Shown here: piece after piece, positions 14,698 through 52,057 of the stretch | Layout of the letters: every line of letters starts with the position of its first letter | Numbering within the stretch: the stretch's first letter is position 1 | Source of the DNA: Candidatus Cloacimonadota bacterium | GTDB lineage: Bacteria; Cloacimonadota; Cloacimonadia; Cloacimonadales; TCS61 | Assembly: GCA_030600585.1 (NCBI GenBank) | Contig: JAUVLU010000004.1 | Coordinates: forward strand, 19,016-83,015 | Direction: 5' to 3' | Length of the DNA: 64,000 nt | Position numbers and translations under genes: made by a program | The notes under the pieces: model-generated | Seen by the model: only the letters and a program-made list of their open reading frames with translations | The model's database searches: none | What the model was told of the DNA's origin: nothing

Positions 14698-15599
14698 AGA
14701 TGAAATTTATTAAGATAATTTTACTTTTTATTGTCTTGTTTGTATTTGGTTGTGCTCCACAGGCAGAGCTTGGAACCAAAAAGAATCCGATCAAAATGTA
14801 TTTTGTTCCTTCTATGGAAGCGGGAAAGATTGTTACCAGTGGCAAGGAAGTAGCCGATTATATTACTCAAAAAACAGGATATTATTTCAAAGTTGCTGTT
14901 CCCACCAGCTATGCTTCTGTGATCGAAGCAATGGGAACGGAAGAAACCGATATTGCCTGGCTGGCTACTTTTGCTTACATCTTGGCTAGCGAAAAATTCG
15001 GAGCTGAAGTAGCTTTAACAGCGGTTCGTAAAGGGCTGGATAAATATAAAGGTCAGTTTATTGCTCAAACAAATAGTGGAATTAACAGTTTAGAGGATAT
15101 CGATGGGAAAATTATTGCTTATACAGATGCTGCTTCTACTTCCGGTTTTATGTATCCGTCTGCCTTGCTTGCAAGAAAAGGTATTAAGCCGGAAAAATAC
15201 TTCTTTGCCGGAGGTCATCCGCAGTCCATTTTGACTGTATATGATGGTAAAGCAGATGTAGGCTGCACTTTCTGGGCTCCGGAAGGTGAAGAAGGTCCTC
15301 GTGATGCACGTCGGGCTGTGATAGAAACTTATCCTGATGTGATGGAAAAGATCAAGATAATTGGTTATACAGATTGGATACCTAATGATACGGTTACATT
15401 TCGCAAGGATTTTCCAAAAGATATGAAGGAAAAAATTGTGGATGCATTATTGGAATATGCCAATACTGAGGAAGGTCATGCAACTTTAGTGAAATTATTG
15501 GATATAGACAATTTTGTACGTTCAACCGATGCTGATTACGATGTAGTACGTCAAACCTTAAAAGCTATCGGCAGAGATGCTTCTGATTTGGTAAAATAA
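14694..15599 (+). CDS. phnD: phosphate/phosphite/phosphonate ABC transporter substrate-binding protein
   Basis: 301 aa with a lipoprotein signal (LFVFGCAP). PhnD-like body (IKMYFVPS, DIAWL, YTDAASTSGFMYP). Followed by phnC and phnE. Confidence 0.8.
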   Translation: MKMKFIKIILLFIVLFVFGCAPQAELGTKKNPIKMYFVPSMEAGKIVTSGKEVADYITQKTGYYFKVAVPTSYASVIEAMGTEETDIAWLATFAYILASEKFGAEVALTAVRKGLDKYKGQFIAQTNSGINSLEDIDGKIIAYTDAASTSGFMYPSALLARKGIKPEKYFFAGGHPQSILTVYDGKADVGCTFWAPEGEEGPRDARRAVIETYPDVMEKIKIIGYTDWIPNDTVTFRKDFPKDMKEKIVDALLEYANTEEGHATLVKLLDIDNFVRSTDADYDVVRQTLKAIGRDASDLVK

Positions 15600-15602
15600 T
15601 TG

Positions 15603-15730
15603 CTGTCTTTCTGAGGTCTCTAATAGCTTTACACTCGAAGAATCTCATGGAATATCTTTCAGCTTTTCATCTTGTGTAAAAAAATGAGATCTTTCCAAAG
15701 ATCAACGAGCAAGAAACGTCAGGAAGACAG
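15603..15730. mobile_element. 128-bp MITE-like element between phnD and phnC
   Basis: Terminal inverted repeats ctgtctttctgagg (15603-15616) / cgtcaggaagacag (15717-15730), 12/14 complementary. The interior (cgaagaatctcatggaa...cagctttt) matches the copy at 44601-44700 and partly the one at 5776-5815. Confidence 0.7.
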
Positions 15731-23289: not shown

Positions 23290-23520
23290 GTTTTTGTAAT
23301 TTTGAAAATGGTTGTCTTTCTGCTTGCCAAGTGTTTTCGTCAGATCGTCCCGATCTGAGAAGGTTTGAATGATGTACATTGAGACGATGTACAAAAAACA
23401 AGTGGACTCCTCGGGACGAGAAGTCCAACCACGACATTGTAAGAACAGTCACTCTTGACTGTTTATACACGTTCAGGATTTATCAGCCGGTCTTCTTGGC
23501 TGAGTGAACGTGCTACATAA
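23290..23520. repeat. cluster of dispersed palindromic repeats
   Basis: Contains gttgtctttctg and small hairpins. The 23468-23512 element (cacgttcaggatttatcagccggtcttcttggctgagtgaacgtg) is repeated in inverted orientation at 44230-44274. Confidence 0.7.
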
Positions 23521-39343: not shown

Positions 39344-40552
39344 ATGAATCCAAAACTTCTAATTGATCGAAGAAAAGGACTGATCAAACAATTAAAAGAA
39401 AAGGAACTGGTTATTGTGTTTGCAGCTTCCGTAGCCGAATATCCCCGAAATTTCCTGCAGGACAAAAATTTTAAATATCTTACAGGATTGGATTTGCCGG
39501 ATGCGGCACTTGTAATAAGTAAGCAGAAAAAACCTGTGATTGAGATCTTTATCGAGCGCGGAATTCCTGAAATGGAAGTATGGGTAGGTAAGAAGATGAC
39601 AAAGAAGGAAGCTGCCGAAGTTTCCGGAATTGTAAAAGTTTCCTACCTCGATGAATTTGAGCGAAAGATTGGTTTCTATTTAAATAGTTGCAAGAAAGTT
39701 TATCTGAATATTGGATATAATAATATTGATAGATCACTTAATAAACAGCAGGATTTCATTACCAAAGCAAAGCAGCATTTTTCACATATAACAGCAATGG
39801 ATATGACGAAAATCATGATCCCGCTTAGAAGTGTGAAAACAAAATGGGAACTGGAACAGATGCAAAAAGCAATTGATGTTACAGGTGAAGGGATTAAAAA
39901 CATCATGAAAAATGCGAAGATCGGGATGATGGAATATGAACTGGAAGCTATCCTGCAATATGAGGTTACTCGCAATGGACTTCAGCACATGGGTTTCAAA
40001 CCAATCATTGCTGCCGGCGGTAATGCAGCAACTCTCCATTATGAACAAAATGATTCCAAAATTGGAAAGGATGAAATGGTACTTTTGGATGTTGGTGCTG
40101 CCTGTAATGGTTACAGTGCTGATATTTCCAGAACTTTCCCGGTTTCAGGAAAATTTACCAAACGGCAAAAAGAAATTTATTCCGAAGTTTTAAAAATAAA
40201 TAAAATAATTATAAAAATGGTTAAGCCCGGTATCGGGATGAAAGAGCTGAACGAAAAAACTGTTGAATTGATCCAGAAAGCTCTCATAAAACTGAAACTG
40301 ATCAAAGATAAAAAAGATTATCGTAAGTATTATATGCATAGTATCGGTCATCATCTTGGAATGGATACTCACGATCTTGGCAAAAGGGATTCTGTCCTTG
40401 AAGTTGGGAATGTGATCACGATAGAGCCGGGTATTTATATCCCGGAAGAGAAGATCGGTGTGCGTATCGAGGATGATATTCTAATTACAAAAACCGGATA
40501 CAGAAATCTTTCCGAAAATATTCCAAAAGAGATAAAAGATTTGGAAAGATGA
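39344..40552 (+). CDS. pepP: Xaa-Pro aminopeptidase (M24B)
   Basis: 402 aa. M24 metal ligands in LLDVGAACNGYSADISRTF, HSIGHHLGMDTHD, ITIEPGIY and VRIEDD. Confidence 0.8.
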   Translation: MNPKLLIDRRKGLIKQLKEKELVIVFAASVAEYPRNFLQDKNFKYLTGLDLPDAALVISKQKKPVIEIFIERGIPEMEVWVGKKMTKKEAAEVSGIVKVSYLDEFERKIGFYLNSCKKVYLNIGYNNIDRSLNKQQDFITKAKQHFSHITAMDMTKIMIPLRSVKTKWELEQMQKAIDVTGEGIKNIMKNAKIGMMEYELEAILQYEVTRNGLQHMGFKPIIAAGGNAATLHYEQNDSKIGKDEMVLLDVGAACNGYSADISRTFPVSGKFTKRQKEIYSEVLKINKIIIKMVKPGIGMKELNEKTVELIQKALIKLKLIKDKKDYRKYYMHSIGHHLGMDTHDLGKRDSVLEVGNVITIEPGIYIPEEKIGVRIEDDILITKTGYRNLSENIPKEIKDLER

Positions 40553-41591: not shown

Positions 41592-43193
41592 ATGAGGAAC
41601 AGAAAAATTCGTGGTTTGATCATCCTTGTAGTTCTGCTGGTAACAGCATACTATTTCTTGCCGATGGTCGTTCCAAACCTACCTTCATTCTGGACGACTA
41701 AACGATTGAAACTCGGTTTAGACCTTCAGGGTGGTTCTCAAATCCAATTGAAAGTTGATGATTCTAAACTTCCTGAAAACGAAAAAGAGGACGCAATCAA
41801 AACTGCTTACGAGATAATTCGTAATAGAATTGACCAGTTCGGTGTTGCAGAACCATTAATTCAGAGAGTTGCAAATACAAACAGGATCATCATACAATTG
41901 CCGGGGTTAAAAGATCCGAGTAGAGCTAAAGAACTTATTGGGCAAACCGCTATACTTGAATTCAAATTTGTAGCTTCTTCCGAACAAATGCAGGAAACAT
42001 ACGAGACAATGGATAAATTCCTTCAAGAAAATATAGAGAAATATGATTTCCTGGAAGAATTTACTGATGTTGAAGAAACTGAAGAAATTATTGATGTATT
42101 AGGAACAGAAGAAGATATAGAAGATGCTTCTTATGATAATGCAATGATCTTTACAGATCTTACAACTTCCAAAGATGGAATGCCGTTGAAAATTGAATAT
42201 AAACATATTGCTAAACTTAAAAGTTTACTAAAGGATCCGCAATTCTTAAAAAATATTCCGGCTGGACTTCAAATTGCCTTAGGTAAAGATGATAAGAACG
42301 ATCCGTATTCTGCTAGAGATATTTATATTCTGCACAAACGTGCTGAGATCACCGGAAAATATCTTGATAATGCAATAACAAAAATTGGGCAAGGTTATAC
42401 AGCAAAAGATAAAGGTCCGTATATCATGCTTGAATTCAAGAAAACAGGCGCAAAGAAATTTAAAAACATCACAGGACAAAATATCGGAGAAAGACTTGCA
42501 ATTATGCTTGATAATATAGTATTCATAGCTCCAACAATTGAAACTCGTATTCCTGACGGGCATGCTCGTATTACAGGTAATTTCACAATTGAAGAATGCC
42601 ACGACCTTGTTATTGTGCTTAATGCCGGTAGTCTTCCCGCTCCTGTAAGTATAATCGAAGAAAGAACAGTAGGACCAACTCTCGGTTCCGATAGCATCAA
42701 AGCAGGTATTCTTGCAGCAATCATCGGTATGACTATTGTGATATTATTCATGTTTATCTACTACGGTCTTTCAGGGTTATTTGCAGATCTTGCGCTTATA
42801 GTTAACGTTACATTTATTATTGCTATAATGACAATGCTGGAAGGAACACTCACAATGCCCGGTATTGCCGGTATGATCCTTACGATCGGTATGGCGGTGG
42901 ATGCGAATGTTATAATTTTTGAGCGGATCAGGGAAAACCTGGCAGCCGGAAAAACAATTCGCTCTGCTGTGGATAGCGGTTTCAACCGTGCATTGGTTAC
43001 CATTTTGGATGCTAACATTACAACACTTATTACAGCACTTGTTCTATATCAGTTTGGAACAGGACCGATCAAAGGTTTTGCTGTAACACTTTCAATTGGT
43101 ATTGTTGGTTCCATGTTTGCATCTATCATATTAGTTAAAGCAATATTTGATGGTCTCATTACAAATACTGCTAAAGATAAATTGAGTATTTAG
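41592..43193 (+). CDS. secD: protein translocase subunit SecD
   Basis: 533 aa. LKLGLDLQGG, a large periplasmic loop, then a 6-TM C-terminus with GIAGMILTIGMAVDANVIIFERIRE. Confidence 0.9.
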   Translation: MRNRKIRGLIILVVLLVTAYYFLPMVVPNLPSFWTTKRLKLGLDLQGGSQIQLKVDDSKLPENEKEDAIKTAYEIIRNRIDQFGVAEPLIQRVANTNRIIIQLPGLKDPSRAKELIGQTAILEFKFVASSEQMQETYETMDKFLQENIEKYDFLEEFTDVEETEEIIDVLGTEEDIEDASYDNAMIFTDLTTSKDGMPLKIEYKHIAKLKSLLKDPQFLKNIPAGLQIALGKDDKNDPYSARDIYILHKRAEITGKYLDNAITKIGQGYTAKDKGPYIMLEFKKTGAKKFKNITGQNIGERLAIMLDNIVFIAPTIETRIPDGHARITGNFTIEECHDLVIVLNAGSLPAPVSIIEERTVGPTLGSDSIKAGILAAIIGMTIVILFMFIYYGLSGLFADLALIVNVTFIIAIMTMLEGTLTMPGIAGMILTIGMAVDANVIIFERIRENLAAGKTIRSAVDSGFNRALVTILDANITTLITALVLYQFGTGPIKGFAVTLSIGIVGSMFASIILVKAIFDGLITNTAKDKLSI

Positions 43194-43201
43194 GGGGAAC
43201 G

Positions 43202-44158
43202 ATGAGATTTTTTGGAAAAACAAAAATAGACTTCATTGGAAAAAGAAAAATTGCTTTTGCAATTTCTATAGTTATCATTCTTACAGGAATCGTTTCGCTT
43301 GTAATTAATAAGGGTCCAAAATACAGTATCGATTTTACCGGTGGTGTTTCTATGGAACTTGATCTTACACCTGTAAAAGAAGGTGCTCAAATAATTAAAG
43401 TTCAAGAAATTCGTGATGCACTTACAAATGCCGGTATCCAAGATGCTGAAATCCAGGAAATAAAGGGGACTGAAGGAAAAAAATTTATTCTTATCAAAAC
43501 CCAAAATTTGGGTGATATGCAAGTAAAAACAAGTACAAAAGTAATTAATATTATCAAGAAAAAATTTTCTAATAATATAGATGATGAAACACTGATCCGC
43601 CTTGTGGAAGAAGTGGGACCAAAGATAGGTGAAGAGCTTAAGGGTAAAGCTATTCTCGCTATATTCTGGGCATTGCTTGGAATTATTATCTACATCTGGT
43701 GGAGATTTGAATTTACATTCGGTCTGACTGCTGTAGCTGCCCTTTTCCATGATATTCTTATTACAATTGGTATCTTCTCTCTCTTAGAAATAGAGATCAG
43801 CCTTTCTATTATTGCAGCTCTGCTTACTATCGTTGGTTATTCTCTGAATGATACGATCGTTGTCTTTGACAGGATTCGTGAGGATCTTAAAGTATATAGA
43901 AAAGAATCGTATGGTAATGTAATTAATCACAGTATCAATGAAACACTTAGCAGAACTATTATTACATCACTCACAACTTTTGTGGTTGTTCTCAGTCTTT
44001 ACATCTTTGGCGGATCTGTTATCCATGATTTTGCATTTGCAATATTGGTTGGTGTAATTGTTGGTACATATTCTTCTATCTTTGTGGCAAGTCCGCTTCT
44101 GGTTGAACACTTCAATAAAAGAGAAAAGAAATTGGGAACCCGCGGTAAGAAGAGATAA
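43202..44158 (+). CDS. secF: protein translocase subunit SecF
   Basis: 318 aa. DFTGG motif and LTIVGYSLNDTIVVFDRIRE. Confidence 0.9.
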   Translation: MRFFGKTKIDFIGKRKIAFAISIVIILTGIVSLVINKGPKYSIDFTGGVSMELDLTPVKEGAQIIKVQEIRDALTNAGIQDAEIQEIKGTEGKKFILIKTQNLGDMQVKTSTKVINIIKKKFSNNIDDETLIRLVEEVGPKIGEELKGKAILAIFWALLGIIIYIWWRFEFTFGLTAVAALFHDILITIGIFSLLEIEISLSIIAALLTIVGYSLNDTIVVFDRIREDLKVYRKESYGNVINHSINETLSRTIITSLTTFVVVLSLYIFGGSVIHDFAFAILVGVIVGTYSSIFVASPLLVEHFNKREKKLGTRGKKR

Positions 44159-44193
44159 TCAAAAAACTTGATTTAAATTTGTAAATATAACAA

Positions 44194-44226
44194 AGCCCTT
44201 CAGTGTAAACTGAGGGGCTTTTTTTG
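44194..44226 (+). terminator. Rho-independent terminator after secF
   Basis: agcccttcag-tgtaaa-ctgaggggct stem-loop followed by TTTTTTT. Confidence 0.7.
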
Positions 44227-44900
44227 TACCACGTTCACTCAGCCAAGAAAACTGGCTGAAAATCTTGAACGTGATTTGTTTTTTATCCTTCCGAAGGTTA
44301 TGTAACTTTCATTTATTCTCAACCTTCGGAAGGTTAAATTCACCTCAGTCTTCTCCGCCCCGTTCTCCGCAGTAGCCCGACACTCCATGGCGGGAAAGTG
44401 AACCTGACTCATAATAACATTAGATGCCGCAGGAAGAAAAATTGTCATCCTGAGCGGAGACGAAGGATAATTCACCGCAAAGATTTATGCGCAGTGGCGT
44501 ACGCTAAGTACGCAAAGAAAGACAACTATTGAAAAATCTGTCTTTCTGAACCCCATCCCCAACCCTTCCCCTTAAACTAATGGGAAGGGAGTAAAAAAAA
44601 CTGTCTTTCTGAGGTATCTTTTTGCCTTACCCACGAAGAATCTCTTGGAAGAATCCTCAGCTTTACTCCTCGTAAACAATCGTCTGAGATCACACTCAGC
44701 AACTAAGCCCTTGTACTATTTAACCTTTTTCTAATTGACAACAAACCACCAGCCAAATCTTATCTTGCCAAATTAAGGAGAATTAAAGGGGGTTTAGTAT
44801 CATTGCATCCTTCACCGCTTCGACTCGACGTTTCTCTTTCGAGTCGAAACTCAGAATTATTTTCTAATTGACACTTAACTATTACTTTATCAAATTCGGT
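44227..44900. repeat. about 670-bp pile-up of dispersed palindromic repeats
   Basis: Inverted copy of the 23468-23512 element (44230-44274). Perfect 13-bp inverted repeat ccttccgaaggtt/aaccttcggaagg (44287-44299 / 44321-44333). tgtcatcctgagcggagacgaaggat at 44443. Two ctgtctttctga words (44538, 44601), the second starting a copy of the 15603 MITE. Hairpins cccttccc/gggaaggg and ttcgactcga/tcgagtcgaa. 14-bp direct repeat ttttctaattgaca at 44727 and 44860. Confidence 0.75.
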
Positions 44901-44918
44901 TTTGATTTTAATAATTAA

Positions 44919-45113
44919 CTTGAAACATTAGAATTTTGGAGAGGAAACTTGAGATATATTCAAAAAATTCTTGGACATAAGAATTTAAAAACCCCGATAC
45001 ATTTTTTCAAAACTATGGGGCAGGCAACAGAAATATATACCCATATAACAGAAAAAGGACTTACTAAGATTAAAAGTCCACTTGATAACTTGAATATTGA
45101 GGATGAATTATAA
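44919..45113 (+). pseudogene. intI: 3-prime remnant (about 64 codons) of an integron-integrase-like tyrosine recombinase
   Basis: The frame opens after TAA (44916) with no start codon: LETLEFWRGNLRYIQKILGHKNLKTPIHFFKTMGQATEIYTHITEKGLTKIKSPLDNLNIEDEL*. It contains the LLGH...IYTH box with the catalytic Tyr and the IntI-type tail G..G(V/I).SPLD.L. The N-terminal roughly 250 codons are absent and replaced by repeats. Confidence 0.6.
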
Positions 45114-45189
45114 AGGTGCGTAATAACTCTGATATTGAAGTTATGACGAACCTTTTTGGTGTAACTATAGGTTAGTTATGTGCACCTTT
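45112..45189 (+). repeat. imperfect palindrome directly after the recombinase stub (attI-like candidate)
   Basis: aaaggtgc (45112-45119) pairs with gcaccttt (45182-45189). Inner ataac...gttat words are present. It is followed at 45212-45218 by GTTAGCA, a GTTRRRY-like core. Confidence 0.4.
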
Positions 45190-45256
45190 TATAAGGGCGC
45201 AGCGTACATATGTTAGCAGAAATTAGTTTATTAAACAATAAGGGAAAATAAGTAGA

Positions 45257-46042
45257 GTGGATATGAATAAAGAAATGAAATTTGATTATTTAAAAAGCAA
45301 AATAAAGTTAAACAGCAAAATAATTTTGGAAAAATATAAAGTAGATATTCAAGAGATTATCGAAATATTTAATCTGCAATATGAGTATTTTGAAGAACAC
45401 TTGAGAGTAGCTTATCTTGAATGTTATTTTAATGATGATGAATTTACAAATTTATTAGCTACTGCCTTGAGAAAAAATATGTTTTCTTTTTTTTCTGCAA
45501 TTTTACAAACACAAGAGGGATTAGTTGGTTCTGCAAGGATAGTATTTAGAAATATTTTTGAATTCCTAATTATTGGTAAATATGCGGCAATATCAAAGAA
45601 TATGGAGTTTATTAATAAATGGGAAAAAGGTGAAGAGGTTTCATTAAAATACGAAGTCTTTTCAAAAATTAGAAAGCCAGATTCAGAAGAAATAAAAAAA
45701 CTTTGGAAGACTCTTTGTTCTTTTACACACAGCACTATTTATGCACAACAAGTTGATTTTGATGCAACAAAATATTTCAATGACATTAAATTTAACTTGG
45801 TTTTACTTAAAGTATTTTTAGAAATGAATTTTCACCTTATGAATTCATATTACATAAACAAATCACTTCAATATTATACACAAGTTTCTGATATTTATCC
45901 AGTAAATGAATTTAATGAAATACCTGTAAAAGAAAAAAAGAAATTATTAAAGTTATTGTTCACTAAAACAAAATTAAAGATGGAAAGAGACCCACGTAAA
46001 GTTATTTATGATTATAAGCTCAAATGGGAGATAAAAAAATAG
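45257..46042 (+). CDS. hypothetical all-helical protein (cassette 1, gene A)
   Basis: 261 aa, GTG start (ATG 45263 is an alternative). No firm family. The GSARIVFRNIFEFLIIGKY...LCSFTHS segment vaguely recalls DUF5677/AbiV-type helical domains (speculative). Confidence 0.65.
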   Translation: MDMNKEMKFDYLKSKIKLNSKIILEKYKVDIQEIIEIFNLQYEYFEEHLRVAYLECYFNDDEFTNLLATALRKNMFSFFSAILQTQEGLVGSARIVFRNIFEFLIIGKYAAISKNMEFINKWEKGEEVSLKYEVFSKIRKPDSEEIKKLWKTLCSFTHSTIYAQQVDFDATKYFNDIKFNLVLLKVFLEMNFHLMNSYYINKSLQYYTQVSDIYPVNEFNEIPVKEKKKLLKLLFTKTKLKMERDPRKVIYDYKLKWEIKK

Positions 46043-46149
46043 AATAAACCTAAAATCTATTTCATTTTTTTTATAACGTTTAGCAAGGAGTTGAACTATG
46101 AACAAGCTATTAAGAATCGTGAATTTTCTGAATTTCGTAGGAGATTAAA

Positions 46150-46755
46150 ATGAAATCAAAAAAAACAGTTAATCAAGATGATTTTGAAATAATAATAAAT
46201 AAAGCAATTAATCTATTAAAAAATGGAGAAAAGCGATTAAGCACATCAATATTCACATCAAAAATGAAATATTTAAAAGATTTTACTCCTAATATATCAG
46301 ATACTTTGTCATCTGACTATGGTATAAGTTCCACTAACAAAACTATTGAAACAGACTTCTTTGAAGAAGTAAACTTAATCGAAAAGCTTTTACAAGAATT
46401 AGGATTCCCAGTAAAACTTGCTGATTGGCAAAAAAGTTCAGATGATGAAAGGATGGAGAACATTTATAAAAAGATGAATCGACGTTCTTACGCAATGCAA
46501 ATTTGGAGTTTTTATGCAATTCCTTGGAGATTTAGTAATGATTGTGTTCACCTAATATGGGATCCTGAAGATGTTATGGGAACACCAATAATTAAAACAT
46601 TTGAATTAGAATATTTCATATCTACAGTATCAAATAACTTTGAAACTCAATATAATCAATATAAGAAAAATCAAAAGCAATTGAAATTTTGGATTAAATA
46701 TGGAGTTATCTTAACTGTCGTTGTACTCTTTTTTTTCTACTCTTGGTTCTTATGA
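46150..46755 (+). CDS. hypothetical protein with C-terminal transmembrane anchor (cassette 1, gene B)
   Basis: 201 aa with AGGAG 6 nt upstream. The last 20 residues are hydrophobic (YGVILTVVVLFFFYSWFL). No family recognised. Confidence 0.65.
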   Translation: MKSKKTVNQDDFEIIINKAINLLKNGEKRLSTSIFTSKMKYLKDFTPNISDTLSSDYGISSTNKTIETDFFEEVNLIEKLLQELGFPVKLADWQKSSDDERMENIYKKMNRRSYAMQIWSFYAIPWRFSNDCVHLIWDPEDVMGTPIIKTFELEYFISTVSNNFETQYNQYKKNQKQLKFWIKYGVILTVVVLFFFYSWFL

Positions 46756-46782
46756 GTTAATAATGATGAATGTTGAAGAAAA

Positions 46783-46913
46783 TTCTGCTAACAAACGTGT
46801 CAGCGGGTTAGCTGGTCGGTGTTCTTTGGCTGAATCGTTTCGATTCAGGTTTGGTCGGTTTGTTCGGTCGTGATCGTTCCGATCCCGCCGCACACGCCAA
46901 ACATTATGTGAAA
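46783..46913 (+). repeat. attC-like structured repeat (about 130 bp)
   Basis: TGCTAAC (46786-46792), 3-4-nt spacer, cgtgtcagcggg (46796-46807), central perfect hairpin ctgaatcg-ttt-cgattcag (46830-46848), cccgccgcacacg (46884-46896, pairs with 46796-46807 leaving one extra base), spacer ccaaac, then ATTATGTG (46903-46910). Confidence 0.55.
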
Positions 46914-46920
46914 AGGAGGT

Positions 46921-47955
46921 TGTATCGAGAATTATTTAATTATAAAATATGTTAATAAATTAAGAAATAACCTTTTATTCAAAGAGTGTTTTTTTCCAAC
47001 TAATGAGTGTAACAAAATTGGAAAAGCACATTCAATCCAAAATAATAGATTTCTTATAAAACTAATACAAAATCGTGATGATAAAATTCTATCATTTAAC
47101 AACAAAGAATCATTTTGTGAAACAGGTTATACTCTTGCTGAAATTGGTAGGAAAAAAGCTTCAACTTTTACCGGATTTTGTAATTATCACGACACAATAC
47201 TTTTTACTCCAATTGAATTATATGACTATAAAACTAATAATAAGCAACAAGAGTTTCTATTTTCTTATAGATGTTTAGCTTGGTTTTATTACAATAAAAA
47301 AATGGAATCTCTTATGAATAACAAATATTATGAAATATTCAAATTGAAGGAAAAAGACCATTTACAAAATATTTTTAATATTTATCAACCATATAATGAA
47401 TTTAAAATGTCTAAAATTGCTGATTCATTTAAAACTAAATATCAGCTTGCTTCTATAACTGTAAATGAATTAACTGAATTTAAAGAAATTATGAATACAA
47501 ATTTAAAGAGTAAGAATTACGATTCAATTTCTACAAAAGTTTTAATATTCCAGAATGAAACTCCAATATGTGCGACATCAGTTATTTACTTAAAAAGAGA
47601 TTTAGAGGGAAACTTGATTAATGATTATTTAGATTTTAGCAAAAAATTAGAACCAATCTTTTTTAGTGTATTTCCTCAAGCAGGGAAAACATATGTTTTA
47701 TTAAGTTATTTCACTGAAACAAAAAATACATTTTCATTTTTATACAATCAATTTGGAAAATTGACACTAAAACATCAGAAGGTATTAATCACGAGTTTAA
47801 TATTTTCATATATTGAAAATTTTTACACTTCAAACCAATATTGGAAATCAAAGAAGCAAAATTTAAGGAATATATTAACTTCACTATTTAATGAAACTTT
47901 AGAGGAAGCAAATGAGGAACTTGAACTGAATGAAAATGTTAACTACTTTAAATAA
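46921..47955 (+). CDS. hypothetical Cys-rich protein (cassette 2); start codon unresolved
   Basis: The track ORF 47302-47955 is only the distal part. The same frame is open for 130 further codons back to TGA 46909-46911 (…ECFFPTNECNKIGKAHSIQNNRFL…ASTFTGFCNYHDTILFTPIE…) with no ATG/GTG/TTG. AAGGAGG lies at 46913-46919. Confidence 0.55.
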   Translation, partial: CIENYLIIKYVNKLRNNLLFKECFFPTNECNKIGKAHSIQNNRFLIKLIQNRDDKILSFNNKESFCETGYTLAEIGRKKASTFTGFCNYHDTILFTPIELYDYKTNNKQQEFLFSYRCLAWFYYNKKMESLMNNKYYEIFKLKEKDHLQNIFNIYQPYNEFKMSKIADSFKTKYQLASITVNELTEFKEIMNTNLKSKNYDSISTKVLIFQNETPICATSVIYLKRDLEGNLINDYLDFSKKLEPIFFSVFPQAGKTYVLLSYFTETKNTFSFLYNQFGKLTLKHQKVLITSLIFSYIENFYTSNQYWKSKKQNLRNILTSLFNETLEEANEELELNENVNYFK

Positions 47956-48020
47956 TTTTTTCACATAGCTTGTTATTTTAATCCTATCCCGCCAAACACG
48001 CAGAACATTTTTGTGAAATT
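47956..48020 (+). repeat. short attC-like repeat (left arm degenerate)
   Basis: ttttcacata (47958-47967) ... cccgccaaacacgc (47988-48001) agaac ATTTTTGTGAAA (48007-48018). The right half aligns with 46884-46913. Confidence 0.45.
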
Positions 48021-48038
48021 TATTAGTAAGGAATAGCA

Positions 48039-49079
48039 ATGTATGATGAAAATGTAGAAGAAATGTTATCAGAATTGATAAATACTTTTGGAGTAAGAGA
48101 ACCTGTTAAAAGTGATTTAATTGCTATAAATATTAAAATGGGTAGAATCGAAAAGGCAGTAAATATGATTGTTAATATATTTAACTTACCTATTAACATT
48201 AATATTATTCGAGTTTCAAGAGATTCATTAAACAATTCAAGAAATTCACCAATAAGCTTTTTGGGTTTCAACAATTTGATTGCTCAAGTCCAAATTCCAA
48301 ACGATTTACCCATATTCGGTTCATCAACGTTAAACGGTTACCCAATAAATATAAAAGTCAGTCAAATTAACAAATCAAATCCAGATATATTTATTATGAT
48401 AATGGCTCACGAAATTTCGCATATTCTGCTTTACTCGCTACGTCACCTTCAAAAAACAAATGAAATCTATACTGATATCATTGCAATCTTGTTTGGGTTT
48501 CAAAATATTTTTAAAAAAGCACGAAAAATAATAACAACTTCTTTTGAGCAAGGACTAATAAGTTCTACAACAAAAACTAACACAACTACTTACGGATATT
48601 TAACTGATGCTCAATTTAATTCGGTTCTTGATAGAATTAAATCAGAATTGATTATAAACAGGAAAAACAAATCATCTTTACATAACAAACTCAAAGAAAG
48701 TCAAAAACAAATCTGCACATATAAAAGAATGATTACAAAATTCAAAAAAGGGCTAACTATTTTGACAAAAAACTTAAAGACTAACATATCCGAATTTGAT
48801 GGAAAAAGAATTTCTGTTTTTTATCAGCCAGGATTCATTGATAATATTGAAACACCACTTCAAAATCAAAAAAAAATAGAATTGATAGCAAACTTCAAGC
48901 AAGATTTAGTTCATTATAATTCACATAATTTGGATCAGTTGAACTGTTATTTAAAATATCTATTAGAGTTAAACATTGACATAAAGAATTTAATATCTTC
49001 CGTTCACAAAGATATAAAATTAATGAGTAAAAACATTGTACTTAAAAGGAGAATCATTTTTGGATTATTTAATAAATGA
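48039..49079 (+). CDS. hypothetical HExxH zinc-metallopeptidase-like protein with coiled-coil C-terminal half (cassette 3)
   Basis: 346 aa. IMIMAHEISHILLY...NEIYTDIIAILFGF (HExxH plus a downstream Glu). The C-terminal roughly 170 aa are K/N/L-rich and helical. Confidence 0.7.
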   Translation: MYDENVEEMLSELINTFGVREPVKSDLIAINIKMGRIEKAVNMIVNIFNLPININIIRVSRDSLNNSRNSPISFLGFNNLIAQVQIPNDLPIFGSSTLNGYPINIKVSQINKSNPDIFIMIMAHEISHILLYSLRHLQKTNEIYTDIIAILFGFQNIFKKARKIITTSFEQGLISSTTKTNTTTYGYLTDAQFNSVLDRIKSELIINRKNKSSLHNKLKESQKQICTYKRMITKFKKGLTILTKNLKTNISEFDGKRISVFYQPGFIDNIETPLQNQKKIELIANFKQDLVHYNSHNLDQLNCYLKYLLELNIDIKNLISSVHKDIKLMSKNIVLKRRIIFGLFNK

Positions 49080-49092
49080 ATATTTTGAAAGA

Positions 49093-49175
49093 AAATTTCA
49101 CATAACAAACAGCTCAGTGCTAAGATTGAGAGAAGATATGAAAGAGCACCGCAGCTGCCAACCATTATACACAAG
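49093..49175 (+). repeat. attC-like structured repeat (about 83 bp)
   Basis: ACATAAC (49100-49106), spacer aaa, cagctcagtgc (49110-49120), cagctgcggtgc complement at 49146-49157 with one extra base, spacer ccaacc, then ATTATACAC (49164-49172). Confidence 0.55.
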
Positions 49176-49258
49176 AAGGAATTAAAGCTTTACAGTAATA
49201 TAAGAATACCAACATTTGACACCAGAAGCTAAAAGGAGTCTATCGTTGGAGGTGAGAC

Positions 49259-50023
49259 TTGAGGAATTATAAGGAAGAAATCATAAAAAAGATTGGAGAA
49301 TATTTCTCTACTGAACAAACATTTACTCGCAAAGAGTTGTATGATTTCCTGGAGTTAAATTTCTTCCCAAATCTAAAAGAAACAACTTTTCGTTGGCGAA
49401 TATACGAATTAAAGAAAACAAACATAATTGTTTCTGTAACAAGAGGTATATTTAAACTATCTGACAACAAAGAATTGTTTGTGCCAAGCATTAATAATAA
49501 GCTTTCTAAAATCAGCAATTTGCTACAAAAGAATTTTAACTCAATATCTTATTGTCTTTGGAGTTCAAATTGGCTTAATGACTTTTCCAGGCATCAAGCT
49601 ACAAATGAAATAGTATTTGTAGAAGTAGAAAAAGAATTAGTAAATTCTGTTTTCAATTTGTTAATAGATAATAATTTTAAAAATGTTTACATAGAGCCCG
49701 ATAAATTCGTCACGGAAACTTATGTCTCTGAAAATCAAATCTCAATTATTGTAAAATCTCTGATAACCAAATCACCAACACAACCAGTGAAAAATACTAT
49801 TGTTCCGAAATTAGAAAAAATATTGGTCGATCTATTCTCAGACAATAAATATCTCGTTGCTTACAAAGGATATGAGCAAAAGGTCATCTTCAAAAATGCG
49901 TTTGATAAATATCAGTTAAATCTTTCCAGCTTAATTAATTATAGTCGCAGAAGAAAAAAAGACAAACTTATCACGGGTTTTTTGATTACTGAAATAAATA
50001 TTGATGAGAAACTATTGAGATGA
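49259..50023 (+). CDS. abiEi: AbiEi-like antitoxin / transcriptional regulator (type IV TA)
   Basis: 254 aa, TTG start. N-terminal winged-helix-like FTRKELYDFLE...TFRWRIYELKKTNIIVSVTRGIFKL. 4-nt ATGA overlap with the AbiEii gene. Confidence 0.6.
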   Translation: MRNYKEEIIKKIGEYFSTEQTFTRKELYDFLELNFFPNLKETTFRWRIYELKKTNIIVSVTRGIFKLSDNKELFVPSINNKLSKISNLLQKNFNSISYCLWSSNWLNDFSRHQATNEIVFVEVEKELVNSVFNLLIDNNFKNVYIEPDKFVTETYVSENQISIIVKSLITKSPTQPVKNTIVPKLEKILVDLFSDNKYLVAYKGYEQKVIFKNAFDKYQLNLSSLINYSRRRKKDKLITGFLITEINIDEKLLR

Positions 50024-51090
50024 TTAAAACAAGCTCTTATAAGTCAGACTGGATAACAAAACTCAGAAACAAAAAGCGAAAGATAGATCCGATATTATGC
50101 GAGAAGATGATAAGAGCTTTAGGACTTTTGGAGCAATTAGTGATCAGCAATCTGCAATTTGTTTTTAAAGGTGGAACTTCATTGATCTTACTCGTAAAGA
50201 AACCGCAAAGGTTCTCGATCGATATTGATATTAATACGGAAGATTCAAAAGAAAAATTATTAAACATTCTTGAAACAATATGTTCAAATGATTTATTTAA
50301 GCGATTTGAAGAAAATAAAAGAACGAACAGAGGTATCCCAAAAGCTCATTTTAAATTTTATTATGATTCTGTTATAAACGGACGAGAAAATTATATTTTG
50401 CTCGATGTGCTTTTTGACAAACATTCATATCCTATAGTAATTGAAACTCCAATTAAATCTTTCTGGATTGATACTGATGACAATATTACAAAAGTAAATA
50501 CTCCTTCGATTGATTCTATTCTCGGTGATAAACTTACTGTTTTTGCTCCAAATACAACTGGCATTAAATACGAAATCGGTAAATCTATGGAGATGATGAA
50601 ACAGCTTTTTGATATTGGTAGATTGTTCGATCATTTTGAAGATATAGAAGTTGTAGCTACTTCTTTCAAAAATATCGCAAAGAATGAATTAGAATATAGA
50701 GAATCTGCTGATACTACTGATGATGTTTTGCAGGATATTATTGATACAAGTTTGATAGTTTCACAATTTCCTGGTGGAACTAAATCTGATTCTCCTGAAC
50801 TTATTGAGTTGATTGACGGATTAAAACGATTTAAAGCATTTCCGATAGATTTTGCATTCAGAGCAGATGATGCAATTCTTTCTGCTGCAAAAGCTGCTTA
50901 TCTAGCTGCAAATTTTTTGAATAAGGATTTCGCCATAATTGAGAAATTTTCAAATAACGTAAAATATAATGAACCCAACTTTACTGATAACTATGAACAT
51001 CTTAAAAAGTTAAAGAAAAGAAAAATTGAAGCTTATTATTATTGGTGCAAGGTATTTGACTTATTAATATTTGATAAAAGATCTAAGTAA
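50020..51090 (+). CDS. abiEii: nucleotidyltransferase AbiEii/AbiGii toxin family protein
   Basis: 356 aa. FVFKGGTSLILLVKKPQRFSIDIDI is the AbiEii (DUF1814) nucleotidyltransferase motif. Confidence 0.75.
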   Translation: MIKTSSYKSDWITKLRNKKRKIDPILCEKMIRALGLLEQLVISNLQFVFKGGTSLILLVKKPQRFSIDIDINTEDSKEKLLNILETICSNDLFKRFEENKRTNRGIPKAHFKFYYDSVINGRENYILLDVLFDKHSYPIVIETPIKSFWIDTDDNITKVNTPSIDSILGDKLTVFAPNTTGIKYEIGKSMEMMKQLFDIGRLFDHFEDIEVVATSFKNIAKNELEYRESADTTDDVLQDIIDTSLIVSQFPGGTKSDSPELIELIDGLKRFKAFPIDFAFRADDAILSAAKAAYLAANFLNKDFAIIEKFSNNVKYNEPNFTDNYEHLKKLKKRKIEAYYYWCKVFDLLIFDKRSK

Positions 51091-51283
51091 AAAATGAAAA
51101 TAGTTCTTTTAAATAAATAGTGTGGGCTTAATTTTATTTGATGGGAAACCTGGATTAATGAAAATCCTATCCATAACTTATTGTGTTGCAACGAAATCCT
51201 TATTTGATAGTTATTTGATAGAAGAATGAAAATGAGAGATTTAGAAACTAACAAAGAGAGTTTTTCATATTCTTAACTAATAT

Positions 51284-52057
51284 CTATTTAGTAATTCCTC
51301 TATCAGAGTCATCTATGAAATCGAGGAATATTTTTTGTTCCTTTGTGAGATTCGGTATCTGTAATGCTTTTTCCATTGCCTGGCTTGTATTTAATTCGGA
51401 TCTATAAAACAATTTATAAACATCTTTTATAGATTTAATAGATTCTTTAGAGAATCCGCGTCTTTGGAGTCCAACACTGTTCAATCCCATTAGTTTATAT
51501 GGAGATCCTTCTCCGCGTGTGTATGGCGGAATATCTTTTTTAATGCCGGATTTCCCGCCGATGAATGCATAAGTTCCAATTTTTACAAATTGATGAATAG
51601 CAACCATGCCGCCGATTATCACGTTATCTTGAACATGAATATGACCGGCGAAATTAACAGCATTGGCAATAATGAGATTATTACCGAGAATACAATTATG
51701 AGCAACATGAGAATAAGCCATGAAAAGACTGTTATCACCGATCTGTGTAGGTTCATCCATTGTTGCAGATTTATTAATTGTACAGAATTCCCGGAAAGTA
51801 TTATTATTCCCGATTATCAATTGTGTCGGCTCACCTTTATATTTCAAATCCTGAGAATCTGTTCCAATAACTGCTGAATGAAAAAACTTGTTGCTGTTTC
51901 CAATTGTAGTGTGTCCATCGATAATAACACTGGAAACAAGCTCATTATCATCACCCAATTTTACGTTTTCATGGATAATACAAAAAGGTCCGATAACACA
52001 ATTTTTACCAATTACAGCTTTTGGATCTACAATTGCGGTTGGATGTATTTTCGTCAT
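51284..52057 (-). CDS. lpxA: acyl-ACP--UDP-N-acetylglucosamine O-acyltransferase
   Basis: 257 aa. MTKIHPTAIVDPKAVIG, hexapeptide repeats, and a C-terminal helical domain containing GLQRRGFS. Confidence 0.9.
   Translation of the reverse strand: MTKIHPTAIVDPKAVIGKNCVIGPFCIIHENVKLGDDNELVSSVIIDGHTTIGNSNKFFHSAVIGTDSQDLKYKGEPTQLIIGNNNTFREFCTINKSATMDEPTQIGDNSLFMAYSHVAHNCILGNNLIIANAVNFAGHIHVQDNVIIGGMVAIHQFVKIGTYAFIGGKSGIKKDIPPYTRGEGSPYKLMGLNSVGLQRRGFSKESIKSIKDVYKLFYRSELNTSQAMEKALQIPNLTKEQKIFLDFIDDSDRGITK

Follow-up and report, generated by a model that had tools for sequence, protein, structure and literature searches.

Probable remains of a two-recombinase cassette-capture platform between secF and lpxA in a Cloacimonadota bacterium

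Introduction

The systems chosen for comparison with the present locus are sedentary chromosomal integrons and CALINs, the latter being attC clusters devoid of any integrase (Cury et al. 2016, PMC4889954; IntegronFinder 2.0, PMC9024848). Both are co-oriented arrays of mostly unannotatable cassettes; their hairpin-forming sites are similar within an array and conserved in structure rather than in sequence, crossover takes place before TT, the start of a cassette is complementary to its own R'', and toxin-antitoxin modules are present. Their attI adjoins the recombinase gene, and degenerate arrays that have no functional integrase are frequent. The locus described here shares these features. Unlike in either system, its recombinase genes point towards the array and attI follows the stop codon. 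In the so-called 'inverted integrase' integrons (Treponema, Chlorobi, others) the integrase gene reportedly also lies on the cassette strand, as here; their integrases are said to carry the IntI additional domain and to act alone, unlike those of the present system. Archaeal XerA (PDB 5hxy) is nearest to the recombinases in fold and length, and their two-paralogue arrangement resembles that of XerC/XerD. The task of Xer systems is to resolve dimeric chromosomes at one duplex site of 28 bp, whereas the genes considered here adjoin cassette arrays at different, non-conserved loci. No description of such a system was found in the searchable literature.

Results

Setting and content of the block

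The window, a 64-kb stretch of a Candidatus Cloacimonadota genome, contains the block of interest at 44949-51283 between secF and lpxA, with secD/secF upstream and lpxA downstream. Every ORF from 45257 to 51090 lies on the + strand and the GC content is 0.23-0.32 inside the block vs 0.33-0.41 in the flanks, in agreement with an earlier note on this DNA that had reported one orientation, AT-richness and a housekeeping setting. The closest SecF among the available relatives of the host genome is 61% identical. Sites were sought with a covariance model, R1, built from 14 sites that all lie in other contigs, the window sequence being excluded. The features are the following.

44159..44948, no strand: non-coding stretch in the place of the deleted intA and most of intB; secF terminator and short dispersed repeats
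44949..45113, + strand: intB-type tyrosine recombinase stub, last 54 codons, LGH...TEIYTH...SPLDNLNIEDEL and stop
45114..45212, + strand: attI, about 100 nt; core ...GCGTACATATG, crossover after G45212
45213..46903, + strand: cassette 1, two ORFs and its own attC
45257-46042, + strand: cassette 1 ORF, 261 aa, weak DUF5677 match
46150-46755, + strand: cassette 1 second ORF, 201 aa
46781..46914, + strand: W1, long-type attC-like site, intact (R1 118.3 bits, E 1.7e-27)
46904..48007, + strand: cassette 2, one open frame from 46912 to 47955, then an internally deleted attC at 47956-48007
48008..49164, + strand: cassette 3, ORF 48039-49079 and its own attC
49095..49175, + strand: W3, short-type attC-like site, intact (R1 45.6 bits, E 6e-9)
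49165..51283, + strand: terminal module, AbiEi 49259-50023, AbiEii 50020-51090, then 193 nt to the lpxA stop

The non-coding stretch holds the secF terminator at 44192-44221, and no recombinase remnant was seen in its six-frame translation. Likewise, tblastn with IntA and IntB returned no recombinase copy in the 64-kb window besides the stub. The short repeats of this stretch recur at 23468-23520 and 15591-15666 of the window, as well as upstream of intA in a related contig (L088).

Recombinase stub and its intact relatives

The stub carries a clade-specific 11-codon insertion, shares 72-77% identity with other stubs and can be aligned to the C-terminal end of full-length IntB. Among NCBIfam families it fits the integron integrase TIGR02249 best (positions 280-315 of 315, E 4e-6), which confirms the IntI-like stub reported earlier, and its sole PDB match is VchIntI4. 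Together with the integron-like array, attI and cassette geometry, these matches speak for a canonical IntI-type 'inverted integrase' chromosomal integron in decay, with ATT cores and weak arms arising by mutation. The full-length relatives of the stub argue against this reading, since they stay under the TIGR02249 cutoff (210.6 vs 265 bits) and match it in two separate stretches; residues 180-246 of IntI4 have a counterpart of no more than 24 residues in IntB, which is colinear with XerA. The IntI-specific I2 domain, thought essential for integron recombination, is absent from IntA and IntB alike, unlike in sedentary integrons. Moreover, intact platforms carry two tandem recombinase genes, intA then intB, co-oriented and abutting, a pair present in 5/5 distinct platforms that have upstream sequence. 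IntB retains the full R-K-HxxR-H-Y catalytic set, while IntA displays GLR to GL(S/T)P and HxxR to TxxK substitutions, with Y to F in L100, and is apparently inactive in view of these residues. A pair with one catalytically degenerate member sets the system apart from sedentary integrons and CALINs and also from XerC/XerD, as does, in the latter comparison, an extra N-terminal beta-rich domain of ~60-85 residues in both proteins.

attI and the crossover point

An inverted pair lies within attI at 45115-45127 and 45140-45152 (GGTGCGTAATAAC / GTTATGACGAACC); one more copy, the third, follows in direct orientation at 45175-45186 (GTTATGTGCACC). The DNA fold has a z-score of -3.8. The element ends CATATG/TTA at 45212/45213 (the slash marks the crossover). 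Among intact relatives attI measures ~80-107 nt and begins directly after the intB stop codon. It is ~80% conserved with L082 and L083 and near-identical to L087/L088, conservation ending at GTTA; in the three-way alignment it is lost at 45215. Three contig pairs (L087/L088, L085/L086 and L096/L097) have intB and attI in common and diverge right after G/TTA, which is the variation at a predicted core that the earlier note had suggested looking for in related genomes. The recombination points that it had placed at 45212, 46903, 48007 and 49164 are borne out. These junctions, read from sequence, show cassettes to be exchanged at the ...G/TTA of attI and the ...A/TTA of the sites.

attC-like sites in the window

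Four attC-like sites had been claimed. R1, the kind of covariance model that had been proposed as a check, finds exactly two intact ones in 64 kb, W1 and W3, and nothing else credible. W1 consists of an R'' with TAAC at 46789-46792, an L''/L' stem, two inner hairpins and an R' A/TTA whose A is 46903; its DNA fold has a z-score of -4.5, and it is homologous to L082 6122-6256 and L100 12916-13049. W3, of the same subtype as L102 17221-17301, has its R'' TAAC at 49103-49106, a stem CAGCTCAGTGCT / AGCACCGCAGCTG and an R' A/TTA with A at 49164. The third site, W2 (47956-48007), has suffered an internal deletion, reads TAGC instead of TAAC at R'' and is undetected by R1 with filters on or off. Its right arm (47982-48009, 82% identical) and that of W3 (49139-49166, 61%) nevertheless form one repeat family with that of W1 (46878-46905), and two copies of the motif CCCGCCNNACACGCNNAACATT are present in the window, where chance predicts 0.01. 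The homologous right arms described earlier thus hold for three sites, while the element at 45197-45220 is attI, not attC. At the fourth proposed site, near 51177, no attC is detectable, R1 having no match in 51091-51283. A 'collapsed junction' suggested at 46073 has no model match either, and the start of unit 1 pairs with the site at 46781. The array has three cassettes and a terminal module in place of the four to five cassettes first counted.

Cargo

Cassette 1 starts with TTAGCAGAAATT, whose complement, AAATTCTGCTAA, lies at 46780-46791 (12/13). In the frame of cassette 2 the first ATG/GTG/TTG comes only at 47302, and the ribosome-binding site at 46914-46919 is followed by ATC at 46924; as its reading frame stands, this gene has lost its start codon. 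Cassette 3 encodes a 346 aa protein with an HExxH motif and no family match, and its 5' core is mutated (TTTTTGTG vs TTATGTG in L106). Its nucleotide homology with L106 (80.5%) extends from the R' core, at 47998, as far as the R'' core, at 49107, and the L106 gene sits between two R1 matches in a different array. In the terminal module, 49259-51090 matches both genes of AbiE, a type IV toxin-antitoxin / abortive-infection system, at full length (PADLOC: AbiEi 1.3e-74, AbiEii 1.8e-120; Pfam: DUF6577 and AbiEii); here the pair, whose function is predicted, ends a cassette array. The view that the cargo is defence-related is supported for AbiEi/AbiEii and not for the rest.

Site structure and cassette-end complementarity across loci

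The window shares its attI and attC families with related Cloacimonadota contigs, and R1 also finds arrays in L082, L084-L086, L100, L102 and L106. The order of a site is R'' (a variable word and TAAC), a 2-3-nt spacer, L'', a variable loop, L', a 5-6-nt spacer and R' (A/TTA and a variable word), with R'' and R' 45-125 nt apart. The crossover reads A/TT at 17/17 aligned sites from six loci. ATT had been taken as a departure from GTT, the R' of canonical integrons, through decay; it is the rule in every related array, and by this alignment a lineage trait, not decay. In L', a G that never varies pairs with an equally invariant C, and a bulged base follows. Bulge and longer spacer both belong to the R'-L' arm, which mirrors the layout of canonical attC, where the longer, bulged arm is R''-L'' (PMC2727003). 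With the A/TT rule, the mirrored arm and the gene pair against it, a canonical integron in decay is an unlikely account of the locus.

In the aligned sites 85.9% of cells are paired vs 20-42% with the partners slid, and the L-stem has changes on both sides in 11/13 pairs (covariation score 0.416 vs <=0.118), which shows across these alignments that the stem is kept by compensatory changes. The L''/L' pairing of long-type sites rests on this covariation, because in their DNA fold of lowest energy L' is often paired to an inner segment and not to L''. When folded, restored sites form R stems of ~9-14 bp. Complementarity between R'' and R' of the same cassette averages 7.0/9 (14 cassettes, six loci), compared with 4.1/9 for the start of the next cassette and 3.5/9 for unrelated junctions, 4% of which reach at least 7. 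The earlier observation that units start with the complement of a word after their last stop codon holds for unit 1 and for units 2 and 3, both 8/9 once the register was corrected by eye where automatic scoring gave 4/9. For the fourth pair (49169-49178 vs 51177-51186) the 9/10 is within chance by estimate.

Discussion

The region is most likely the fossil of a type of cassette-capture platform that occurs in Cloacimonadota and in neighbouring FCB lineages and is made of intA-intB, attI and cassettes with hairpin sites. The first description, of mobile cassettes in a decayed chromosomal array beside a recombinase stub, is retained; the filing of this array as an integron fails on the absent I2 domain, the catalytically degenerate paralogue and the mirrored attC asymmetry.

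Since the first bases of a cassette are complementary to its own R'', circularisation would give the cassette a single complete site able to form a hairpin. As with integron sites, recombination may act on this site as folded single-stranded DNA, given that partner sites overlap only in TTA and that pairing, unlike sequence, is conserved. Cleavage would be the work of IntB bound at the R box, and IntA would be a non-cleaving partner, for example at the L box. In the window intA and intB have been deleted except for 54 intB codons, hence a fossil array. With the recombinases gone, W2 deleted internally, a mutated core, a lost start codon and a last module without site, the array should be immobile unless recombinases act in trans.

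Equally improbable as the decayed integron is a conventional integrative island or a set of Xer/dif-type modules, in which a Xer-like pair shifts entire blocks by duplex recombination at short cores and the hairpins are incidental. The recombinases are Xer-like in architecture and paired like XerC/XerD, and homology between L106 and the window is limited at both R boxes. However, neither a tRNA nor flanking direct repeats were found for such an island, the TTA identity at the crossover is too short for a duplex reaction with two ordered strand exchanges, and R'' and R' lie too far apart for one duplex core site. Pairing is maintained by compensatory change, and one partner is without catalytic residues while XerC and XerD both have theirs. 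Least probable of all, REP-like repeats or transcription terminators in a horizontally acquired island would fit stable, G+C-rich hairpins after stop codons in an A+T-rich block and the other short dispersed repeats of the window, but the stems are without T-run, terminator predictions include only W1 fragments, the outer stem sequence is cassette-specific and divided between both cassette ends, identical platforms continue, from one and the same base, into different first cassettes, and the repeats, with no further copy in 64 kb, are confined to the gene strand around intA-intB-attI platforms or stubs.

Within the cassette-capture platform, the cassette homologous between L106 and the window is flanked by different attC bodies on both sides. 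This is unpredicted if an ORF travels with its downstream site, and site homogenisation within a genome or R'' exchange is needed. The terminal module is either the flank that originally lay to the right of attI or a last cassette whose site is gone, and its AbiE toxin-antitoxin genes may help the array remnant persist.

An AT-rich block between secF and lpxA

The block at 44159-51283 lies between secD/secF (41592-44158, + strand) and lpxA (51284-52057, - strand). Every ORF in it is on the + strand, and its G+C content is 0.23-0.32 compared with 0.33-0.41 in the flanks, as expected from an earlier note on this DNA that had described a one-way, AT-rich ORF block between secDF and lpxA. The genes are as follows.

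Genes of the block
45257-46042, + strand: first ORF of cassette 1, 261 aa, weak DUF5677 match only
46150-46755, + strand: second ORF of cassette 1, 201 aa, no family match
46912-47955, + strand: open frame of cassette 2, about 343-347 codons, no family match
48039-49079, + strand: ORF of cassette 3, 346 aa, HExxH motif, no family match
49259-50023, + strand: AbiEi (PADLOC 1.3e-74)
50020-51090, + strand: AbiEii (PADLOC 1.8e-120)

Searches of the products of cassettes 1-3 against Pfam, NCBIfam and PADLOC gave sub-threshold matches only. AbiE systems are encoded by adjacent genes for AbiEi (antitoxin/regulator) and AbiEii (nucleotidyltransferase toxin); here both genes are present side by side, overlapping at 50020-50023. 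The cassette 2 frame has no ATG, GTG or TTG before 47302, and ATC at 46924 comes after an AGGAGG at 46914-46919, so that the frame either uses a non-canonical start or no longer has its start codon. The cassette 2 protein carries a Cys/His-rich motif near its N-terminus. Canonical integrons have a Pc promoter upstream of the array. One sigma-70-like promoter match here (45082-45111) falls inside the recombinase stub, in a region with fewer such matches than its own shuffles, the promoter type of the phylum being outside the scan.

No Rfam family reached its gathering threshold in the window, and the weak matches obtained at E up to 1 are confined to 44124-44339, where the secF terminator is followed by repeats. 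These short intergenic repeats are dispersed, one type being 'GTCATCCTGAGCGGAGACGAAGGAT': they occur downstream of secF (44222-44273, 44414-44469, 44591-44664), elsewhere in the window (23468-23520, 15591-15666, 13666-13690) and in two related contigs (L088, where they precede intA, and L082).

In a single scan of genome contigs with SecF, the closest match shares 61% identity, and the secF neighbourhood of that relative is not comparable. Exact matches to SecF and to the cassette 3 protein came only from short contigs of one sequencing run, SRR18936872, while exact look-up of LpxA returned no record. Two contigs of that run (L001 and L105; Logan, same organism, other assembly) end 65 nt past secF or inside the right arm of the site at 46781-46914 (window 46879). 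Because they break off inside this arm, the sequence of the site is suggested to be repeated elsewhere in that genome or community.

The recombinase stub and its homologues

For the ORF immediately upstream of the array (44949-45113, 54 aa), the C-terminal end of TIGR02249 'integron integrase' is a better match (E 4e-6) than either XerC or XerD, and VchIntI4 was its only PDB match, in keeping with the IntI-like stub proposed at this place. Four database homologues (72-77% identical) are likewise short and share an 11-residue insertion, KT[PIHFFKTTGQA]TEIYTH. Two of them, P0001 and P0004, were traced to contigs, and the neighbour genes of one are unrelated to those of the other. The insertion corresponds to 33 nt in frame in intB, between ...KT and TEIYTH, just ahead of the catalytic tyrosine (window 44991-45023; L082 3206-3238), and is also found in the related contigs L083, L084, L085, L086 and L094; its nucleotide conservation is above that of the neighbouring codons, and it may serve as a protein loop, a promoter or a binding site. 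Since a recombinase of at least 320 aa in L085 has it too, the insertion is a clade trait, not a lesion. Full-length genes were reached by a metagenome scan with the stub as query. Contigs L087 and L088 encode a 364-aa recombinase with the same end as in the window, ...SPLDNLNIEDEL*, and a near-identical spacer comes after it.

The spacer behaves as an attI

A spacer of ~100 nt is conserved downstream of the stubs, and conservation in the stub relatives ends at CATATG|TTA (window 45212), precisely where the first recombination core had been placed.

Features of the window attI
45114-45212, + strand: attI, conserved spacer after the stub
45115-45127: GTTAT-word copy
45140-45152: GTTAT-word copy
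45175-45186: GTTAT-word copy

In each of three contig pairs, the two members share recombinase gene and spacer and differ from the base after G|TTA on.

First bases after attI in contig pairs
L087 and L088: TTAGGCG in the first, TTATGCG in the second
L085 and L086: TTATATG in the first, TTAGCGG in the second
L096 and L097: TTAGGTG in the first, TTAAGTG in the second

Because identical platforms diverge at this point in all three pairs, the spacer behaves as an attI. It has the properties of the attI of canonical integrons, which adjoins the integrase gene and where cassettes enter at G|TT. Every attI contains an inverted pair and a third, direct copy of a word made of GTTAT plus 7 nt. Within a platform the variable part of this word is common to all three copies; it differs from one platform to the next.

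The stub with its attI is also found in L082, L083 and L084, followed by an attC-bearing array in L082 and L084; the L083 contig stops within the first ORF. As stub and attI recur in this way, stub-type remnants seem common, like CALINs, in which two or more attC sites lie close together with no integrase gene nearby. The window fits this description under the lineage-specific model used here in place of that of IntegronFinder, as two model matches 2.2 kb apart are accompanied only by the 54-codon stub.

attC-like sites with a mirrored asymmetry

A repeat finder returned the right arms at 46878-46905, 47982-48009 (82% identical) and 49139-49166 (61%) as one family, the homology of these arms having been claimed beforehand, and also paired the left ends at 46779-46803 and 49093-49117 (72%). 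The motif CCCGCCNNACACGCNNAACATT has 2 copies in 64 kb, against 0.01 expected by chance. Sites homologous to those of the window occur in the downstream arrays of six related contigs (L082, L084, L085, L086, L100 and L102).

In an alignment of 17 sites, TAAC on the left side is kept in 16, the exception being the window site at 47956-48007 with TAGC; on the right side CATT is invariant and A|TTA is present in 16/17, the same window site having A|TTT. The canonical consensus is RYYYAAC for R'' and G|TTRRRY for R'. Here the first base of R' is A, not G, in 17/17 sites, and G|TTA is found at attI only. The stem between them contains an invariant C-G pair followed by an unpaired base on the right arm. 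Over the 17 sites, 85.9% of stem cells hold a standard pair; controls with the partners slid by 1-3 columns give 20-42%. Both sides have changed in 11 of the 13 stem pairs, and the stem covariation score is 0.416 versus 0.118 or less in the slid controls. An attC site is an imperfect palindrome, R''-L''...L'-R', whose structure is conserved more than its sequence, and the covariation places these sites in the same category.

R1, a covariance model built from 14 non-window sites only, matched the window at 46781-46914 (+ strand, 118.3 bits, E 1.7e-27) and at 49095-49175 (+ strand, 45.6 bits, E 6e-9), and gave nothing else credible over the whole window. With filters off it found no further site in 44000-52000, which leaves two sites of the earlier note, a collapsed junction at 46073-46085 and a last site near 51177-51283, without a match. 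The site at 47956-48007, which keeps the right arm alone and reads TAGC for TAAC, is an internally deleted site. A weak R1 match at 40115-40240 (- strand, 16 bits, E 0.21) lies within the ORF 39344-40552; with several of its pairs non-standard, it is most probably due to chance.

The bulged base (alignment column 119, beside the invariant C-G pair) is on the R'-L' arm, as is the longer spacer, of 5-6 nt against 2-3 nt. The sites thus do not have the extrahelical bases on R''-L'' that are found in canonical attC, where R''-L'' is the longer arm and an extrahelical G sets the choice of the bottom strand (Bouvier 2009, PMC2727003).

Cassettes fit their own sites

The cassette of a canonical integron is a circularisable unit: the bases with which it begins after G|TT complete the R' of the attC that belongs to it. 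For each cassette, we matched the 9 nt preceding TAAC against the reverse-complemented 9 nt that follow TTA at its own start. Over 14 cassettes from six loci the mean was 7.0/9, versus 4.1/9 with the start of the next cassette and 3.5/9 with unrelated junctions, of which only 4% reached 7. When a site is rejoined to the start of its own cassette, the outer stem of the fold measures some 9-14 bp. The geometry of circle excision and re-insertion claimed for these units is therefore upheld, and the cassettes have the circularisable form of those of integrons. From the complementarity and the folds of the restored sites, a circular cassette would bear one complete hairpin site, which insertion would split at [A/G]|TT. 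Cassette 1 of the window shows 12/13 complementarity with its own start; units 2 and 3 scored 4/9 in the test and 8/9 each after a one-base register shift made by eye. An ungapped 18-mer complement search, in which unit 1 alone stood out, was superseded by the register-aware test.

The closest homologue of the 346-aa protein of cassette 3 (74% identity) lies in a related contig, L106, between two R1 matches and with different neighbours, and L106 1393-2505 shows 80.5% nucleotide homology with window 47998-49107, from the upstream R' core to the downstream TAAC. Since L106 reads A|TTATGTGAAATTT where the window reads A|TTTTTGTGAAATTT, the core of cassette 3 is mutated in the window. Homologues at 40% identity are found in ordinary chromosomal contexts that lack such sites. 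The site bodies flanking cassette 3 and its L106 homologue are of different subtypes on both sides, and this difference suggests either that the sites of one genome are homogenised or that R'' is a second point of exchange. In L100, 4 of 5 sites score nearly alike with R1 (122-132 bits).

In L102, R1 matches at 11655-11789, 12514-12592 and 13280-13417 are separated only by tiny ORFs of 32-43 aa, and these units (11655-13417) may be ORF-less cassettes. The stretch L102 17291-17496 is 85% identical to one ~95 nt past the intB stop in L103 and L104 (L102 ~11170-11376), two contigs that are otherwise identical to L102.

Paired recombinases without the IntI-specific domain

An additional domain specific to IntI, the I2 helix around patch III, is described as both defining and required for activity (PMC9668308, citing Messier & Roy 2001; PMC7790495). 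Since the window keeps only the last 54 codons of intB, the domain was looked for in full-length relatives of the stub. Full-length IntB scored 210.6 bits on TIGR02249 (cutoff 265), with a match in two stretches, and the score on the archaeal XerA model was equal. IntB 94-259 aligns with VchIntI4 15-179 and IntB 284-356 with IntI4 247-319; as the aligned stretches stop at 179/259 and resume at 247/284, 67 residues of VchIntI4 (180-246, the IntI-specific domain) correspond to only 24 in IntB. IntB is colinear with XerA, and in an AlphaFold model (pLDDT 84.6) there is no extra helix at the place of I2, the best fold match being XerA and the second IntI4. The full-length stub relatives thus lack the IntI-specific domain. 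For its integron-like recombinase subgroup, Smyshlyaev 2021 (PMC8138268) describes the insertion only as 'not fully conserved'.

Canonical integrons have a single integrase gene. Here intA and intB form a pair in 5/5 platforms with upstream sequence, intA lying directly upstream and co-oriented; the two genes abut in L100 (GCA_008633355.1 contig SWBY01001662, an intact platform), L102, L103 and L104, and are 45-108 nt apart in L096/L097 and L098/L099. IntA and IntB are about 40% identical, and each has a beta-rich domain at its N-terminus, some 60-85 residues long. IntA has GL(S/T)P for GLR, TxxK for HxxR and, in one case, F for the tyrosine. About 400 nt upstream of intA, L100 alone has a third tyrosine recombinase gene (7472-8560, Arm-DNA-bind_5 / Phage_int_SAM_5 type), which is probably unrelated to the platform.

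Nature of the system and state of the window's copy

An integrative island is bounded by direct repeats, in many cases next to a tRNA gene, and has an integrase gene at one end. Such an island is unlikely here: no tRNA gene lies in the block and no flanking direct repeat family was found. The view of the block as an array of cassettes largely held. As for the integron claimed in the earlier note, it was right in kind, given the attI, the attC structure and the cassette geometry, and wrong in family, since I2 is absent, the recombinases are paired, the asymmetry is mirrored and R' starts with A. The system works like an integron, yet it is not a canonical one. It shares with canonical integrons an attI, hairpin sites conserved in structure and a circular geometry specific to each cassette; it differs from them in recombinases without I2, in the pairing of an active enzyme with a degenerate paralogue, in a bulge and a longer spacer on the R'-L' arm, and in an R' that begins with A instead of G. 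We put at about even the chance that this is a distinct, undescribed integron-type system, with a heteromeric Xer-like pair of active IntB and dead IntA, no I2, an extra N-terminal domain and mirror-asymmetric folded sites, widespread in Cloacimonadota and also present in other FCB and in Spirochaetota.

In the window, intA is missing, as is intB except for its last 54 codons, and we found no other recombinase copy in the 64 kb. One site is internally deleted, with the adjacent core mutated, cassette 2 has no canonical start codon, and no site follows the AbiE module. In this genome, the locus is thus an inactive remnant with an AbiE module.

Exchange takes place at the G|TTA of attI and the A|TTA of the sites, and the stems are conserved via compensatory change. 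As TTA is all that partner sites have in common at the crossover, and R'' and R' are 45-125 nt apart, recombination would proceed on a folded single strand. Top-strand cleavage at R'' (TAA|C) would restore the canonical relation between cleaved and bulged arm. This model was rejected because it predicts that sites face the other way with respect to attI and that attI is directly followed by a site body; neither is seen. IntB bound at the R box would instead cut the bottom strand at TAA|T, since no other polarity agrees with the orientation of the arrays, with IntA as a putative non-cleaving partner.

The window locus is of value as a pointer to an integron-like system apparently without the domain thought to enable integron recombination. 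To our knowledge, the I2 domain defines IntI in every detection tool. Integron integrases are considered to have gained recombination of folded, single-stranded attC by acquiring the I2 helix (PMC4792948, PMC7790495). In a distinct system, cassette capture would either have been invented independently or descend from a relative of the pre-I2 integron ancestor that has survived. If confirmed, it would offer a natural test system for cassette capture without I2 and extend integron-like gene capture to anaerobic phyla that have received little study. Such platforms would then presumably be undercounted by IntI-based surveys, which would not recognise these recombinases as integrases. A full-text literature search returned no account of integron-type cassette arrays in Cloacimonadota/Cloacimonetes, nor of I2-less or paired recombinases serving attC-like cassette arrays, and Cloacimonadota is not among the phyla listed in the IntegronFinder 2.0 paper.

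The recombinase family is large, with thousands of matches of about 360 aa, mainly in Cloacimonadota and with some members in Marinimicrobia, Spirochaetota and Bacteroidales, annotated at source as XerD or site-specific integrase. Contigs L091-L093 encode a more distant lone recombinase that has about 305 aa and shares 54% identity with the stub; CATCC|GTTAGCAGG or CATCCG|GTTATAAT lies only ~20 nt past its stop, the sequence downstream differs between them, and these contigs may represent another platform type with a very short attI.
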